From Nitrosarchaeum sp. (GTDB lineage Archaea > Thermoproteota > Nitrososphaeria > Nitrososphaerales > Nitrosopumilaceae): a stretch of 64,000 bases of DNA. Shown one piece after another: positions 52,609-58,456 of this stretch; position 1 is the first letter of the stretch; each line of letters begins with the position of its first letter. A program made the translations under genes and the position numbers. The notes beneath the pieces are model-generated. The model saw only the letters and a list, made by a program, of their open reading frames with translations. It was not told where the DNA came from and did no database searches. The stretch spans positions 480,001-544,000 of the forward strand of contig OZ245020.1 of the NCBI GenBank assembly GCA_965223865.1, read 5' to 3'.

Positions 52609-52974
52609 ATGTCTATTGAAGAGCAATTGATTGAAATTGCTAAGCAAGGTAAACTCCTAACTCACAAATGTACTAACTGTGGTTATCTACATTTATCTAC
52701 TGCCTATTATTGTCTAAAATGTGGTAGTAAGGGATTTGAGGATGTCATTTTAGAGGGTACAGGTACTGTTGCTACTTATACCATAATTACCGTCGCTCCT
52801 GCAGGCTTTGAAAAATACACACCTTATGCCTTTGTAGTACTCAAATTAGATAATTCAGACCTTAGAATTTCAGGATTTATGGGAGGAATTTCCACTCCTG
52901 CAGATCTTCCAGTTGGAACAAGGGCAAAAATCACCGGTTTTGATGAACGCGGTATCCTAATGGAAAAGCAGTAA
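52609..52974 (+). CDS. DUF35 Zn-ribbon/OB-fold thiolase partner
   Basis: CTNC...CLKC, GTVATYT, PYAF; immediately after the thiolase. Confidence 0.92.
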   Translation: MSIEEQLIEIAKQGKLLTHKCTNCGYLHLSTAYYCLKCGSKGFEDVILEGTGTVATYTIITVAPAGFEKYTPYAFVVLKLDNSDLRISGFMGGISTPADLPVGTRAKITGFDERGILMEKQ

Positions 52975-53044
52975 AATTATTTGTTTGAATTATTAAAAAA
53001 ATTCTGAATCGATTCTTAATTATTTTGAAAATTTGATTATTTTC

Positions 53045-53206
53045 ATGTCTGTTGAAGTAACATGTGGAAAGTGTGGAGAAAAGATCACAAACATGAAGAT
53101 GCTAAAATCATTAAAAGATGTAATGAATCCCTATAGTGGAAAATGTCCATCCTGTGGACAGAAGTTATCAAATACTGAATTTTCTCTTGATGTCCAAGAA
53201 AACTGA
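53045..53206 (+). CDS. CPxCG-type zinc-finger microprotein (53 aa; not in the ORF track)
   Basis: MSVEVTCGKCGEKITNMKMLKSLKDVMNPYSGKCPSCGQKLSNTEFSLDVQEN*. Confidence 0.85.
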   Translation: MSVEVTCGKCGEKITNMKMLKSLKDVMNPYSGKCPSCGQKLSNTEFSLDVQEN

Positions 53207-53357
53207 TCTAAATACTTTTCCTATTTGATTACTATAAACTTCAAATGTTATACAAAAATTTTGATTGAAACCAAAACTGATCTAAATACTTTTCCTATTT
53301 GATTACTATAAACTTCAAATGTTATACAAAAATTTTGATTGAAACCAAAACTGATCT
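53199..53357. repeat. Perfect 74-bp tandem duplication (2.15 copies)
   Basis: Units start AAAACTGATCT at 53199, 53273 and 53347. Confidence 0.95.
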
Positions 53358-53499
53358 TAAAGTTTTCTTTTTTGATCTTTGAGAATATAAAATATATTAA
53401 AAAATTTTTGAAATTTTGTTTTCTGATCTAAAACTGATCAAAATTCTACTAATATGATCTAGTCACAAATCTTATTTAGTCCTAATTTTTAGCAAAAGC

Positions 53500-55590
53500 A
53501 TGGTATTGAGTGAAGTAACAGAACCAAAGAGAAGTGGAATTCTCCAATCAACATCAAAACGTGTTAGAATGATCTTTTCTGTAATGGCAAGTCCTAACAG
53601 AATAGATATTTTGAGAATATTAAATTCCAAAGGACCTTTGACTTATTCAGAATTAAAATCCCTAGCTGGATTCAAATCAAAAAAAGAGAGTGGTAAATTT
53701 GCCTATCACTTAAGAAAACTATTGAGACAATCTCTTGTTGCCCTAAACAAGTCTGAAAGAAGATACACAATCACAAATCTTGGAAAACTTGTTTTAAGCT
53801 TGGCAAGACAGATTGAAGAAAGATCAATTATTGAAAGCGGAAAAATGTATGTCCGAACTTCACATGAATCAATTGAAGAATTTAATTCTCATAAGATCAT
53901 ACAATCACTTGTCAGAGAAGGAAGTCTTCCATTAGAATTAGCACAAAAAATTACTGAAGAAGTTGAAAATAGAATTTACAAATATCAGACTACCTATCTT
54001 ACAGGCTCACTTATTAGAGAAATGGTCAATTCTGTGCTACTAGAGCATGGTCATGAGGAATATCGTAACAAATTGGCACGCCTAGGCCTGCCTGTTTATG
54101 ATGTTCAAGAGATGCTGACAAATCTAGATAATGTTGATAATGGAGCAGAATGTCTGCTTTTCAATACTGGTCAAAGAGTATTCGCTGAACATCTTCTTAC
54201 AAACATATTGCCAAAAGATGTTGCAGATTCTCATCTTTCAGGAGATTTACATATTACAAATCCAGGAATTTGGTCAATGATTCCTGATACGATATTTGTT
54301 AATGTTAAAGAATTAATTGATGACGGAATTGATCTTGGAGGAAAATATCTTGATGTATCAAGAATTCCCACATCAAAATCACTTGATGAAATTACTTCTT
54401 CACTATCTGTTATTATTTCTCTTCTTTCAAAAGAAGCATCACAAGAGATCGTACTAGAAGGAATTACTCAATTATTTACGAAACATTCAAAAAATCTTGA
54501 AGAACTAGAACAAAAACTTACAAACACATTTGCTACTGCTTCTACAACATCAAAATATAGCAAAGAAAGTACTCATGTTTCAATTAGATTACAACTAGGC
54601 TCCGATACAAAGATCATTAATGCAATTATTAATGCATACAAAAATTACACAAAGATTACACCAAACCCAAAGATTGGTTTGATCATTGATTATGAAAAAG
54701 GAAAAATCTTTGATGTATCAGAAGTACTTGCTGAAATCATCTCAATTGGTGGTAAAGTAATGTTTGCTAAAGGACAAGTATCAAGTCATGGTATAACAAA
54801 TCCTACAACAAAGAGCTCTGGCCCCTTATCAATAACATTACAATCAGTTTCAATTAATCTTCCAAGACTTGCATTTGAATCTAACAAAGATGAAACATAC
54901 TTTAGAGCAAGACTCGCACTATTAATGAAACCAGCATTAGCATCAATGGCATTAAGAAAGAAAGAGATATCTGACCTTACTAGAAGAGGACTCAATCCAA
55001 TACTTGCAAAGAATACTCAATTTATGCAAAGAAGTTCAATGTCACTAAATGTTAATCTCGTTGGTCTAAAAGAAGCTGTATACAATATTCTTGGTTTTCA
55101 AGATAACAAAGAAGGAAAAGAAATTCTTCACAAGGTAATTGAGACTGCAGTAGATGTTGGTGCTAAAAAGGGCAAAGAGATTGGAGATCCTGTAGCCATA
55201 TCCATGACTGAAACTGAAGGCTCTGTGAGGTTTGCCAGTCTTGACGGTGAGAAATACGGCAAGAATTCTGCCCTCAACTCTATGGAAGGCGACTCTTATT
55301 CACAAGGTATAGTAATTAATGCCTCTGAAATAGCCGAATTTACGAACAAAAGTGAGCCTATTGCTGAATGTAACAAATTATCTAAACTGCTTAATGGTGG
55401 TTTACTTGTTACCTTACAAATAGACAAGGATGTCAAATCTGCTGATATCAAAAAATTTATTGAAAAGGCATCAGAGATAACAAATTCATTCCAACCTAAA
55501 AAACATGTGGCAATTTGTGGTGAGTGTGGTTTCAAAGATGAACCATTTGAAGACAAATGTCCAAAGTGTAAATCACCTTACGTTGTCTGA
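53500..55590 (+). CDS. ArsR-like wHTH + ATP-cone + degenerate class III ribonucleotide reductase (NrdD-like) fusion
   Basis: wHTH (RIDILRIL...FAYHLRKL...YTITNLG), ATP-cone (EEFNSHKIIQSL...IREMVNSVL), NrdD barrel motifs (HLSGDLHI, SINLPRLA, VGLKE, RFASLD), C-terminal CxxC...CPKC; no glycyl-radical loop. Confidence 0.85.
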   Translation: MVLSEVTEPKRSGILQSTSKRVRMIFSVMASPNRIDILRILNSKGPLTYSELKSLAGFKSKKESGKFAYHLRKLLRQSLVALNKSERRYTITNLGKLVLSLARQIEERSIIESGKMYVRTSHESIEEFNSHKIIQSLVREGSLPLELAQKITEEVENRIYKYQTTYLTGSLIREMVNSVLLEHGHEEYRNKLARLGLPVYDVQEMLTNLDNVDNGAECLLFNTGQRVFAEHLLTNILPKDVADSHLSGDLHITNPGIWSMIPDTIFVNVKELIDDGIDLGGKYLDVSRIPTSKSLDEITSSLSVIISLLSKEASQEIVLEGITQLFTKHSKNLEELEQKLTNTFATASTTSKYSKESTHVSIRLQLGSDTKIINAIINAYKNYTKITPNPKIGLIIDYEKGKIFDVSEVLAEIISIGGKVMFAKGQVSSHGITNPTTKSSGPLSITLQSVSINLPRLAFESNKDETYFRARLALLMKPALASMALRKKEISDLTRRGLNPILAKNTQFMQRSSMSLNVNLVGLKEAVYNILGFQDNKEGKEILHKVIETAVDVGAKKGKEIGDPVAISMTETEGSVRFASLDGEKYGKNSALNSMEGDSYSQGIVINASEIAEFTNKSEPIAECNKLSKLLNGGLLVTLQIDKDVKSADIKKFIEKASEITNSFQPKKHVAICGECGFKDEPFEDKCPKCKSPYVV

Positions 55591-55804
55591 AATCCGTAAA
55601 TGAAAAACTTGTTCCGATCTTTTCAGAAAAGATTTTGATCCTTTTCAGATGTCCGATCATCGTTATTTATTAACAAAGTTATGCCATTATGAAATTCATA
55701 GTAGCGGTGTAAAAAATATTGACTCATGAACGCGACAAGATCAAAATTTTTCGAGCACACAAGTTATATCCACATTCATCATATGCCTTGCGGGGAGATT
55801 ATAA

Positions 55805-58456
55805 TTGGATAATTCACAAATAGAAAATACTATCAATGAGATCCGTAAGCGCAGTGGCGCAGTAACGGCTTTCAATAAAGATAAAATTTCAAATGCCATT
55901 TACAGGGCATTGGCAGCCACCTCTAAAGCCGATCGTGGCCTGGCTGATCAACTCGCAGCAAAAGTTGTTGATAAATTAGTAGAACAAGGATTTACAAGCT
56001 CGCGAACACCTAGTGTTGAAGATATTCAAGATATTGTAGAATCAACTTTAATCGATAGCGGTAACAGCGATATCGCAAAAGCATACATCGTCTATAGACA
56101 TGAAAGAAGAAAATTAAGAGATGAAAAAATGAAAATCTTAAACGCAAAGAATCTAGATCCAGTATCCAAGAAATTTGATCTAAACTGCTTGAGAGTATTA
56201 GCATCTAGATATCTTTTCAGAAATGGAAAAAATGAGATCATTGAGACACCGACTGAAATGTTTGAAAGAGTGGCAATTTTAGTTGGTATAGGTGACCTAT
56301 TGTATGATGCTCAATTATTTGACAAGTCAGGGAACATTACTCAAAACATCGATGAAGCAACAACATACCTTGAAAAACTAGACAACTTTAATTACAAATT
56401 CAAAATTGGCAACTACTTTCTAAACAAGTGGCATTTCCGATCCTTGATCAATCATTATGTTACTCTTGCTAGCAAGGGTCAGATGAAAATGAGTTTCAAA
56501 GATCTCTTGACAATGATTGCAGCCAAGAAATTCGATAATTACGAAGATAAAATTACCGAATACTTTGATCTGATGACCTCTCAAGATTTCCTGCCAAACT
56601 CACCAACAATGATGAATGCTGGTGGAAGACTAGGTCAGCTTTCTGCATGTTTTGTACTTGGAATGGAAGATGGAATGGAAGAGATCATGAAATCAACCTC
56701 TGATGCAGCTCTGATCTTCAAATCAGGAGGTGGAGTCGGAATTAATTACTCCGATCTACGTGAAGAGGGTGATATCGTAGCATCAACATCGGGCGTTGCA
56801 TCAGGACCAGTGTCTTTCATGAATATTATCAACACTGTTACTGAAGTTGTCAAACAAGGTGGTAAGAGAAGAGGAGCCAATATGGGCATTATTGAGGCAT
56901 GGCATCCCGACGTTGAAAAGTTCATTACAAACAAAACTGAACCCGGTGTTCTTGAGAACTTTAATGTTAGTGTTGGAGTTTGGGAAGACTTTTGGCATGC
57001 ACTTGTAAACACTGATGACGGTAAGTACATTCTTAGAAGTCCACGTGATAAAAAACCTGTTAGAGAAATTAATGCACACCAACTAATTGATTTGATTGCA
57101 TTATCTGCATGGAAAAGTGCAGAACCTGGATTGATCTTCTTTGATCAAATTAACAAATACAATGTGTTTGCAAAAGCAAGACAAAATCCACTAAGAGCAA
57201 CAAATCCATGTGGAGAACAAAGTCTCTATCCATACGAATCATGTAATCTTGGTTCTATCAACTTGGTAAATCTTGTAAAAAGAAAAGCTGATGGAGAATA
57301 CGAATTTGATTGGCAGAGATATGAAGAAACAATTAGAAAGACCACAAGATTCCTAGATAACATTATTGATGTAAATCATTATCCAGTACCAGAAATTAAT
57401 GTAGCATCAAAAGAATCAAGAAGAATTGGATTAGGTGTAATGGGGGTTGCAGATTTACTATACAAACTACGAATTCCATACAACTCTAAAGAAGGATATG
57501 ATCTACAATCAAAATTATCTGAAGCACTAACATACTATTCCATGGAAGAAAGTGTTGCCCTTGCAAAATCTCGTGGTGAATTCCCACTATGTTCCAAGAC
57601 AGAATATCCTGAAGGAAAGATCCCTGTTGCAGGTTATTATGAAAAGCCAAAAGAACTACACTCCTACGAATGGGATGCACTAATTGAAAAAATCAAGAAA
57701 CATGGAATTAGAAATGTTCTGACAACAACTGTTGCTCCAACAGGTACACTGTCTATGATTGCAGATTGTTCAAATGGAATGGAACCTGCATTTGCTTTAG
57801 TGTTTGAAAAGAGAGTTACTGTTGGAAGATTTTTCTATACTAACAAAATCATTGAAGAAGTCCTTAAAGAAAATGGTCTATACACAGATGAAATATTAGC
57901 CAAAATTGCAGACAATTATGGTTCTCTTAAAGGAATTCCTGAAATTCCAGAATGGATGCAAAAAGTCTTTGTAACTGCAATGGATATTCATTGGGCAGAT
58001 CATCTCATAGCACAATCTGTATGGCAAGATTGGATTGGAAATGCAATAGCCAAGACCATTAACATGCCTTATGATGTTACTGCAGAAGATGTAAAATCTG
58101 CATATCTATTGGCTCATGAACTAGGTCTAAAAGGAATTACAGTATATCGTGATGGCTCGAGACACAAACAAGTACTCCACATGACAAGTGAAAATGCAGA
58201 AAAAACATTTGATGTAACGCCAAGTCAATACGTTACAGATTATGTTACCACAAAAATAACAAATCCATATATCAAATCCCAAGTTAATGCTGCACTTGCA
58301 TTAAAAATTCATGATGAGGAAATCAAATCAGAATCTCATCAAACTGAAGAAATCTCTGAAGAACGCTTATGTCCAACATGCAAAAACAATCTTGTCTTTG
58401 TAGAAGGTTGCAGTATTTGCATTGAATGTGGATTTAGTGGTTGTACTTCAGGATAG
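55805..58456 (+). CDS. nrdJ: Adenosylcobalamin-dependent (class II) ribonucleotide reductase with ATP-cone
   Basis: PNSPTMMNAG, QLSACF, TNPCGEQ, CNLGSINL, APTGT, KGITVYRDGSR, C-terminal Cys cluster. Confidence 0.97.
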   Translation: MDNSQIENTINEIRKRSGAVTAFNKDKISNAIYRALAATSKADRGLADQLAAKVVDKLVEQGFTSSRTPSVEDIQDIVESTLIDSGNSDIAKAYIVYRHERRKLRDEKMKILNAKNLDPVSKKFDLNCLRVLASRYLFRNGKNEIIETPTEMFERVAILVGIGDLLYDAQLFDKSGNITQNIDEATTYLEKLDNFNYKFKIGNYFLNKWHFRSLINHYVTLASKGQMKMSFKDLLTMIAAKKFDNYEDKITEYFDLMTSQDFLPNSPTMMNAGGRLGQLSACFVLGMEDGMEEIMKSTSDAALIFKSGGGVGINYSDLREEGDIVASTSGVASGPVSFMNIINTVTEVVKQGGKRRGANMGIIEAWHPDVEKFITNKTEPGVLENFNVSVGVWEDFWHALVNTDDGKYILRSPRDKKPVREINAHQLIDLIALSAWKSAEPGLIFFDQINKYNVFAKARQNPLRATNPCGEQSLYPYESCNLGSINLVNLVKRKADGEYEFDWQRYEETIRKTTRFLDNIIDVNHYPVPEINVASKESRRIGLGVMGVADLLYKLRIPYNSKEGYDLQSKLSEALTYYSMEESVALAKSRGEFPLCSKTEYPEGKIPVAGYYEKPKELHSYEWDALIEKIKKHGIRNVLTTTVAPTGTLSMIADCSNGMEPAFALVFEKRVTVGRFFYTNKIIEEVLKENGLYTDEILAKIADNYGSLKGIPEIPEWMQKVFVTAMDIHWADHLIAQSVWQDWIGNAIAKTINMPYDVTAEDVKSAYLLAHELGLKGITVYRDGSRHKQVLHMTSENAEKTFDVTPSQYVTDYVTTKITNPYIKSQVNAALALKIHDEEIKSESHQTEEISEERLCPTCKNNLVFVEGCSICIECGFSGCTSG

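Follow-up and report, generated by a model that had tools for sequence, protein, structure and literature searches.

At 53500..55590 (+) of a 64,000-nucleotide stretch of DNA from Nitrosarchaeum sp. (Nitrosopumilaceae; assembly GCA_965223865.1, contig OZ245020.1, forward strand, 480,001–544,000), here called the window, lies a gene for a 696-amino-acid (aa) protein in which a winged helix-turn-helix (wHTH) domain and an ATP-cone precede a barrel and a Zn ribbon like those of NrdD, the class III ribonucleotide reductase (RNR). The protein is almost certainly not an enzyme. It is probably a transcription factor, non-catalytic, dimeric and autoregulated, which controls RNR genes in the way bacterial NrdR does, and to the idea that it responds to a nucleotide via its cone-like domain we give an even chance. 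All feature coordinates are window positions and all residue numbers are those of the 696-aa protein; the genome from which the window comes (2.0 Mb) is 99.98% complete.

The order of the domains, first read from the letters of the DNA without database searches (in the following, the sequence-only reading), is confirmed by Pfam, AlphaFold and Foldseek. In the translated open reading frame (ORF), Pfam finds the wHTH domain (residues 25–99, 53572..53796, +) with 33.0 bits for HTH_20 (cut-off 27) and 40.8 bits for DUF7347 (cut-off 27.6), and the ATP-cone-like domain (residues 116–188, 53845..54063, +) with 33.9 bits (cut-off 25.8). The NRDD match covers residues 441–692, which correspond to profile positions 275–529 of 562, and with the NCBIfam equivalog model for NrdD (TIGR02487) the protein reaches 83.5 bits, far under the cut-off of 326.35. 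The next gene, taken in the sequence-only reading for an intact class II RNR, is just that: nrdJ (55805..58456, +) encodes a B12-dependent enzyme of 883 aa with an ATP-cone and a C-terminal Cys-rich tail, in which Pfam recognizes the ATP-cone, Ribonuc_red_lgN and a full barrel at 492 bits, and which scores 724 bits with NrdJ_Z of NCBIfam (cut-off 400). It is the sole class I/II barrel in the genome, and the 696-aa gene is the one NRDD-like locus.

Catalytic Residues

The thiyl radical residue of NrdD is a cysteine in the finger loop. In the 696-aa protein there is only a remnant of this loop, S-H-G-I-T (residues 429–433, 54784..54798, +), which stands within S-S-H-G-I-T-N-P where the solved NrdDs have M-G-C-R (S-C-C-R in T. 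maritima). When aligned to the NrdDs of T4, S. thermophilus, P. copri and T. maritima, Gly431 falls on the Gly and Ile432 on the Cys of M-G-C-R, in the loop for which PMC11226230 uses the name "Cys radical loop". The conserved HxHD motif, which according to the same source holds the triphosphate of the substrate in NrdD, is replaced by H-I-T-N (residues 251–254, 54250..54261, +); it is kept in none of the 58 rows of the family alignment, and the canonical control P0270 has HIHD. Finally, the glycyl-radical loop (R-x-x-G-Y) is absent: the protein stops 6 residues past the last CxxC of the Zn ribbon, and P0270 runs on past its Zn ribbon into S-R-I-T-G-Y-Y. The four-Cys Zn ribbon itself (55516..55569, +) is present, with Cys673, Cys676 and Cys687 invariant and Cys690 at least 90% conserved in the 58 sequences. 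The control P0270 has a peculiarity of its own, a LAGLIDADG intein directly before the C-C of the finger loop, at the catalytic Cys.

The activase is missing, too. In the whole genome no ORF scores above the cut-off for NrdG; the best scores with NrdG models, 48 bits (cut-off 131) and 35 bits (cut-off 126), belong to a QueE-like ORF 190 kb away, and the best radical S-adenosylmethionine ORF of the genome scores best as QueE-like. A Gly_radical domain was likewise not found in the genome with a model whose reach is limited, since it rang in only 3 of 14 control genomes. Because three catalytic or substrate-binding features and the activase are missing, the protein is best regarded as an RNR pseudoenzyme. 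The sequence-only reading had pointed to the finger loop without Cys, to the end after CPKC without a glycyl loop and to the lack of nrdG in the window. These observations hold, the last one now for the whole genome, and the trans-acting glycyl domain plus activase that might have restored activity did not turn up in these searches.

Barrel Fold and Predicted Dimer

The NRDD match leaves about half of the barrel (residues about 200–660, 54097..55479, +) weakly scoring. The AlphaFold model, built on the 58-sequence family alignment (pLDDT 89.1, pTM 0.80), was compared by Foldseek with the Protein Data Bank (PDB). The best 30 and more matches are all class III RNRs (probability 1.00, E 6e-21 to 8e-13, TM 0.5–0.67), from S. 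thermophilus, T. maritima, P. copri and phage T4. Not before about 1e-7 do other glycyl-radical enzymes and class I R1 appear. Since class III RNRs are matched over the whole barrel, the weakly scoring residues about 200–440 belong to an NrdD barrel as well. In the sequence databases the likeness is reached only via the family: the profile of the 58 sequences matches solved NrdDs with E 1e-39 to 1e-31, which puts the likeness beyond chance, and searches with single sequences yielded neither a match of the whole 696-aa protein to PDB sequences (phmmer) nor an informative match of the cone region alone. By Foldseek and by the family profile, the ten-stranded alpha/beta barrel fold of NrdD is thus present. 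The alignment to NrdD and the structure prediction that had been proposed along with the sequence-only reading therefore agree with it in both respects, in the match of the barrel to class III RNRs and in the missing catalytic residues.

Two copies of residues 200–696 were predicted to form a homodimer with a score of 0.76, the best of three controls scoring 0.00; the mark applied to this score is attained by 20 of 30 solved homomers and by 1 of 23 solved single chains. At least 94% of the contacts are common to three runs, and the pLDDT of the partner is at least 82. The predicted interface is formed by helices 202–235, 280–312 and 338–357. It should be noted that NrdD dimers have already been solved, so that this result may reflect likeness only and is not a proof of dimerization.

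Winged Helix and ATP-Cone

In an enzyme one would expect the catalytic barrel to be conserved best. When the mean identity of 24 short forms (see below) to the 696-aa protein was calculated domain by domain, it amounted to 73.8% for the wHTH, 64.3% for the ATP-cone, 43.8% for the cone-barrel junction, 29.4% for the N-terminal half of the barrel, 34.6% for its C-terminal half and 31.7% for the Zn ribbon. Judged by these values, the wHTH and the cone are the best conserved parts and the barrel the least, which is the reverse of the enzyme pattern. The wHTH domain not only scores above the Pfam gathering thresholds but also has the topology of a helix-turn-helix with a beta-wing: the model shows helices at 20–29, 32–44, 49–55 and 61–76 and strands at 80–83 and 88–91.

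The roof of the cone reads V-R-T-S. In the 58 rows, V118 is found in 58, R119 in 57, T120 in 49 (with Ser in 6 more) and S121 in 55, and K132, R173, Y188, R189 and R194 are near-invariant as well. This degree of conservation clearly points to a cone-like site that is functional. The NrdJ encoded by the adjacent gene has R-K-R-S-G at the roof of its cone, i.e., a K-R pair, and the roof of the P. copri NrdD cone is described as using Lys7 and Arg8 (PMC11226230).

The genome encodes a third ATP-cone protein of 308 aa (G000:C1:1272164-1273090; L067:1381-2307), in which the ATP-cone (28.2 bits) accompanies an Mrr_cat-like nuclease region (20.4 bits, just below the cut-off of 21) and AF1548-like_C (31.9 bits). 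It has no NCBIfam match and may be a nucleotide-gated nuclease.

Distribution and Relatives

Matches to the 696-aa protein, with identities down to about 33%, are found in 182 of 201 genomes of its class, the Nitrososphaeria, and in 160 of the 161 high-quality ones (the 201 include the unpublished genome G132). A spread of this kind suggests a near-core gene of the class that is kept by selection. True NrdD, on the other hand, scores above the cut-off in just 8 of the 201 genomes, each of them from one of three deep families, and in none of the 114 from the window's family. In the deep-branching class genomes G093, G054 and G073 there is an NRDD-like ORF of 678–692 aa whose score (about 255 bits) lies between those of the pseudoenzyme and of true NrdD.

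An exhaustive search of 1.84 billion representatives yielded 1214 clusters at E ≤ 1e-3 and 185 at E ≤ 1e-30, and a scan of species genomes at least 580 relatives, the best 80 of which are all from Bathyarchaeia or Hecatellales. Of 149 non-canonical representatives 73 could be classified, 42 as short and 31 as long forms, the other 76 being fragments or lacking the anchor motifs. Short forms (about 630–720 aa) end after the Zn ribbon. Long forms (740–800 aa), which are uncharacterized and the named ones of which come from one Bathyarchaeota and one Thorarchaeota metagenome-assembled genome (MAG), have the same wHTH and cone, the V-R-T-S roof included, with 37–50% identity over wHTH, cone and junction, and also lie upstream of an RNR gene; the HxHD motif is lost in them as well. 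They differ from the 696-aa protein in their length, in a match to NRDD of 200–300 bits, in a relic glycyl tail in which the radical Gly is mostly replaced and in their neighbor, which is usually a true nrdD. In databases they are called "hypothetical protein" or "anaerobic ribonucleoside-triphosphate reductase".

The loop Cys is kept in 4 of the 42 short and 6 of the 31 long representatives, and only in P0173 within G-C-R. Counted with an approximate regular expression, about 7 of the 31 long tails still have Gly at the position of the radical Gly. The full catalytic set is present in none of the 73, and the long forms give the impression of an enzyme midway in its decay. Some representatives of 526–660 aa (P0237, P0241, P0247, P0248, P0251, P0252 and others) share with the 696-aa protein only wHTH, cone and junction (residues about 24–260); in P0251 neither NRDD nor ATP-cone is detectable by Pfam. 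Their barrel may have diverged beyond recognition.

These data bear on the question whether the protein could still be a reductase, either with the help of a trans-acting glycyl-radical protein and an activase or by an unknown chemistry. Its barrel fold and Zn ribbon are intact, and a few relatives have retained the loop Cys, as G-C-R in P0173, or the Gly position. But the 696-aa protein lacks thiyl Cys, HxHD and glycyl domain all at once, its genome has neither NrdG above the cut-off nor a Gly_radical domain within the limited reach of that model, no member of the family unites the catalytic features, nrdJ supplies the function, and the barrel is the least conserved part. A reductase is therefore close to refuted.

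The closest named relatives of the 696-aa protein are from Nitrosopumilus and Nitrosarchaeum, and the names given to relatives in the databases are inconsistent: "anaerobic ribonucleoside-triphosphate reductase", "helix-turn-helix domain-containing protein", "ATP-cone domain-containing" and "hypothetical" are all in use. That such a protein would easily be misannotated as an anaerobic RNR had been foreseen from the sequence, and the first of these names shows that this has happened.

Gene Neighborhood

In 29 of 30 closely related loci nrdJ follows directly downstream; in the 30th the contig ends. Of 20 loci picked from different families, 16 have an adjacent RNR gene, namely a co-directional nrdJ downstream in 10, a gene of another NrdJ lineage (32% identical, 558 bits with NrdJ_Z) in one and a convergent nrdJ in five, four of which lie tail-to-tail within about 35 bp and one at 1.3 kb. 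In Bathyarchaeia an RNR gene is found directly downstream and co-directional in 29 of 80 loci, 26 times nrdD-like (30–57% identical to P0270) and three times nrdJ; if only loci with at least 2 kb of downstream sequence are considered, 25 of 57 have an RNR neighbor (hand count). All of five whole Bathyarchaeia genomes (completeness unknown) contain a class II barrel, so that in none of them is the long form the only RNR, and in three of the five a long form with 264–284 bits lies immediately upstream of an NrdD with 487–532 bits. That the neighbors are RNR genes of two classes, placed in two orientations, is better explained by a functional tie than by the inheritance of an operon structure. 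Synteny with nrdJ, proposed as a check along with the sequence-only reading, thus holds in Nitrososphaeria and is rare in Bathyarchaeia, where an RNR neighbor is mostly nrdD. The setting of an aerobe with nrdJ, in which that reading placed the protein, is too narrow for the family, since in anaerobic Bathyarchaeia longer relatives are found directly upstream of a true nrdD.

A functional tie could also act at the level of the proteins. The dead barrel might bind active NrdJ or NrdD, or it might buffer nucleotides, the HTH serving for oligomerization or tethering. Such a role would go well with the convergent arrangements, which are not explained by operon inheritance, and with a barrel that is kept class-wide and predicted to have an NrdD-like dimer interface; beside a true NrdD, as in Bathyarchaeia, a heterodimer is conceivable. 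However, an NrdD partner is missing in Nitrososphaeria, as the count for the window's family illustrates, and the barrel of NrdJ is of another lineage. No domain is better conserved than the HTH, which passes the models for DNA-binding wHTH domains, and the conserved boxes in both promoters, to be described below, would be left without explanation. We therefore consider regulation at the protein level quite improbable.

Directly upstream of the gene for the 696-aa protein and on the same strand lies an ORF of 53 aa (53045..53206, +) for a CxxC...CxxC Zn ribbon, as seen by translation and tblastn. It is present in this position in 30 of 30 Nitrosopumilaceae loci (87–100% identity) and in 7 of 20 distant loci (37–60% identity), and its stop codon falls inside the first GATC box (see below). 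The 53-aa protein belongs to no Pfam family above cut-off. Near the long forms of Bathyarchaeia a small Zn-ribbon protein was seen in 1 of 80 loci, on the opposite strand. Since the DNA-binding part of NrdR is a Zn ribbon, the 53-aa protein could be a partner, and it is our guess that it belongs to the regulator system.

Candidate Operators and Promoters

Upstream of the candidate regulator gene (the gene for the 696-aa protein), there are seven GATC boxes within 53199..53465, at 53205, 53279, 53353, 53374, 53425, 53436 and 53456. A repeat search uncovered a perfect tandem duplication of 74 bp (53199..53346), each copy of which opens with the box AAAACTGATCTAAA. At 53199–53346 a deletion and joints are seen in DNA contigs from related strains, so that the copy number of the repeat seems to vary. 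Four of the upstream GATC, two of them inside the duplication, are part of the word AAAACTGATC(T/A)(A/T)AA. An alignment of 30 species reveals a conserved distal box AAAAyTGATCAAAA (53430–53443) and, 20 bp from it, a conserved proximal box ATGATCTAGTCA (53452–53465), which abuts the B-recognition element (BRE). A conserved block about 25 bp before the ATG, CACAAATCTTATTTAG (53464..53480, +), is the putative BRE/TATA, which from archaeal promoter architecture we take to be the promoter of the gene; the block GTCA.AAGTCTTAtTTAc is conserved at this promoter in 30 of 30 loci and has a related counterpart in distant families, and the mRNA is likely leaderless. Several families of the class share TTTACAAAGTnnTTTTAATCA as a conserved core promoter block (upstream regions L045–L059).

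Between the two genes an alignment of 22 species was used. After the stop codon of the candidate regulator gene follow three GATC boxes (55616, 55637 and 55655, within 55611..55662) with spacings of 21 and 18 bp. By hand count, GATC is intact in 22 of 22 rows at box 1, in 21 at box 2 and in 19 at box 3, and in most species the third box sits within the palindrome ACGATCATCGT. A fourth box (55739) precedes the putative BRE/TATA of nrdJ, TTATATCC at 55764–55771 (together 55735..55771), and this TATA block is conserved in all 22 species. The perfect palindrome TATGAAATTCATA (55688..55700), located between boxes 1–3 and the TATA of nrdJ, reaches a conservation of at least 90% in almost all columns but is not seen upstream of the candidate regulator gene. 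A second factor may bind there. Rfam models found nothing on 52900–56000 at E up to 1.

GATC as such is unremarkable genome-wide, with 6318 occurrences observed and 6346 expected. Windows of 300 bp with at least seven GATC are found four times in the genome, once in the region upstream of the candidate regulator gene. In 30 species of Nitrosopumilaceae there are 3–9 GATC upstream of this gene and 3–8 in the intergenic region, which amounts to densities of 18.4/kb and 16.4/kb, respectively, as compared to 3.7/kb within the gene, and in the alignments of both regions the boxes stand out as conserved islands. The spacings of neighboring GATC (235 pairs) peak at 10–11 bp (33 pairs) and at 20–22 bp (46 pairs). 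The 14-mer box has 12 matches in the genome with at most one mismatch, four of them upstream of the candidate regulator gene, and a degenerate form of the box has 75, four of them within 515 bp at the locus. By these counts the extended box is almost confined to this locus. The clustering of GATC as a genome-wide statistic was given up because it is too unspecific (112 clusters, of which 32 count as "non-coding" when ORFs are mapped crudely, from ATG only); we therefore rely on conservation and on the extended box.

With respect to expression, 6% of the words occur in two metatranscriptome runs, which belong to two studies (Logan contigs). The contigs cover parts of the candidate regulator gene and of nrdJ, and one spans 55535–55697; being only 90–99% alike, they derive from relatives. 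DNA carry-over is possible, the contigs carry neither starts, ends nor strand, and the parts that they do not cover are uninformative.

There are several points that weigh against a nucleotide-responsive regulator of RNR genes. DNA binding by the 696-aa protein and its ligand are inferred rather than directly seen, and the retention of the barrel is not accounted for. The sensing of ATP/dATP is uncertain: with the phosphate-binding K-R of the roof replaced by V-R-T-S, ATP/dATP may not be the ligand, so that of the earlier proposal of a pseudoenzyme serving as a factor that senses deoxynucleoside triphosphates (dNTPs) the first half stands and the second is uncertain. The 30 species are kin and their box counts hence not independent; the promoter-proximal fourth box is present in only 12 of the 22 species and replaced in the other 10; and boxes 1–3, which lie 109–148 bp upstream of the nrdJ TATA, could serve as 3′-end or terminator elements or bind another factor. 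Clusters of GATC are not unique, as there are 112 of at least three in 70 bp genome-wide, and GATC boxes are not seen outside Nitrosopumilaceae (0–2 per region in 20 distant loci). In a k-mer search of 10 loci from distant families no motif was shared by both promoters, only A/T-rich words, which is evidence neither way. Finally, 4 of the 20 diverse loci are without an RNR gene within 7 kb, and more than half of the Bathyarchaeia loci without one nearby.

Some of these points would be expected if the protein bound DNA at another or broader target, for example one linked to replication or to the cell cycle, with the adjacency to nrd genes incidental and the boxes belonging to another factor. 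The loci without a neighboring RNR gene (about half of those in Bathyarchaeia and the four among the diverse ones) would then need no explanation, nor would the restriction of the GATC boxes to one family, and the tie between the 696-aa protein and the boxes is itself an assumption. Against this stand the near confinement of the extended box to the locus, even in its degenerate form, and the recurrence of the adjacency with nrdJ, with a second NrdJ lineage and with nrdD in separate lineages. An unrelated target thus appears unlikely.

Proposed Mechanism

The reading that we prefer, a regulator of RNR genes, can be put into the following scheme, in which the binding of the GATC boxes, the nature of the ligand and the sign of regulation are all inferred. 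The 696-aa protein would be a non-catalytic descendant of a class III RNR that is dedicated to the control of RNR genes. Its NrdD-type barrel would dimerize and thereby set two winged-helix heads on arrays of GATC boxes, which are spaced one or two helical turns apart and lie both before nrdJ and in the promoter of the regulator gene itself. The cone-like domain, perhaps the barrel too, would bind a ligand that is presumably a nucleotide and that would alter DNA binding or the oligomeric state, by which the transcription of the RNR gene and of the regulator's own gene would be coupled to the nucleotide pool in the manner of bacterial NrdR. Because the proximal box abuts the BRE we lean toward repression, at little better than even odds.

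A wider version of this scheme would be that the whole allosteric apparatus of an RNR, the activity site in the cone together with the specificity site at the dimer interface, was moved from the enzyme to gene control and now senses both the level and the balance of the dNTPs. Such a system would be old and common to Nitrososphaeria, Bathyarchaeia and Asgard archaea; among archaea it would be the chief counterpart of bacterial NrdR, and the small Zn-ribbon protein could be its third component. We regard this extension as rather doubtful.

Comparison with Known Systems

NrdR, the master regulator and repressor of RNR genes in bacteria, is encoded beside or near nrd genes and has boxes that are repeated with helical-turn spacing before its own gene as well as before nrd genes. 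It is found in genomes whatever their class of RNR, as reported in PMC9110341, PMC12176259 and 10.1101/2024.05.27.596032. The 696-aa protein resembles it in that a DNA-binding domain is joined to an ATP-cone, in that the gene lies beside an nrd gene and, provided that the protein binds them, in the conserved GATC boxes at helical spacings before its own gene and nrdJ. It is not a homologue of NrdR as a whole, and TIGR00244, the NrdR model, is absent from its NCBIfam matches at E up to 0.1. The head is a wHTH in the one and a Zn ribbon in the other; the 696-aa protein is archaeal, contains a dead but complete RNR barrel (about 460 residues) and has V-R-T-S rather than K-R at the roof of its cone. 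NrdR is called "rare in archaea" in PMC9110341. In the window's genome TIGR00244 has no match, and it scores above the cut-off in 1 of the 201 class genomes (G021, a genome with 4% contamination). The niche of NrdR thus appears to be open in genomes of this class.

With the NrdDs of T4, T. maritima, P. copri and S. thermophilus the protein shares the barrel, the N-terminal ATP-cone, the C-terminal four-Cys Zn ribbon and the predicted dimer interface; it differs from them in the lack of thiyl Cys, HxHD, glycyl-radical domain and activase and in the additional wHTH at its N-terminus. This N-terminal domain matches HTH_20 and HTH_5-like models and is in this respect like regulators of the ArsR/SmtB type, although it reaches only 23.7 against a cut-off of 55 for the metalloregulator subfamily and is fused to a sensor module of 600 residues. 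In the freely searchable full-text literature, papers on RNR and NrdR included, no account was found of an NrdD that is fused to an HTH or catalytically dead; a prior mention elsewhere is possible.

Implications

How the transcription of RNR genes is controlled in archaea is an open question, for which the 696-aa protein is a concrete and testable candidate. It is nearly universal in the ammonia-oxidizing archaea, organisms of the nitrogen cycle that are abundant worldwide and rely on an RNR that needs B12, and it has relatives in Bathyarchaeia and Asgard archaea. Many of the genes bear the label "anaerobic ribonucleoside-triphosphate reductase", which in the interpretation of metagenomes wrongly implies an anaerobic capability. 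If the proposed function is true, the protein would clearly exemplify how a pseudoenzyme is put to new use as a sensor, and intermediates with a decaying tail, the long forms, are still extant.

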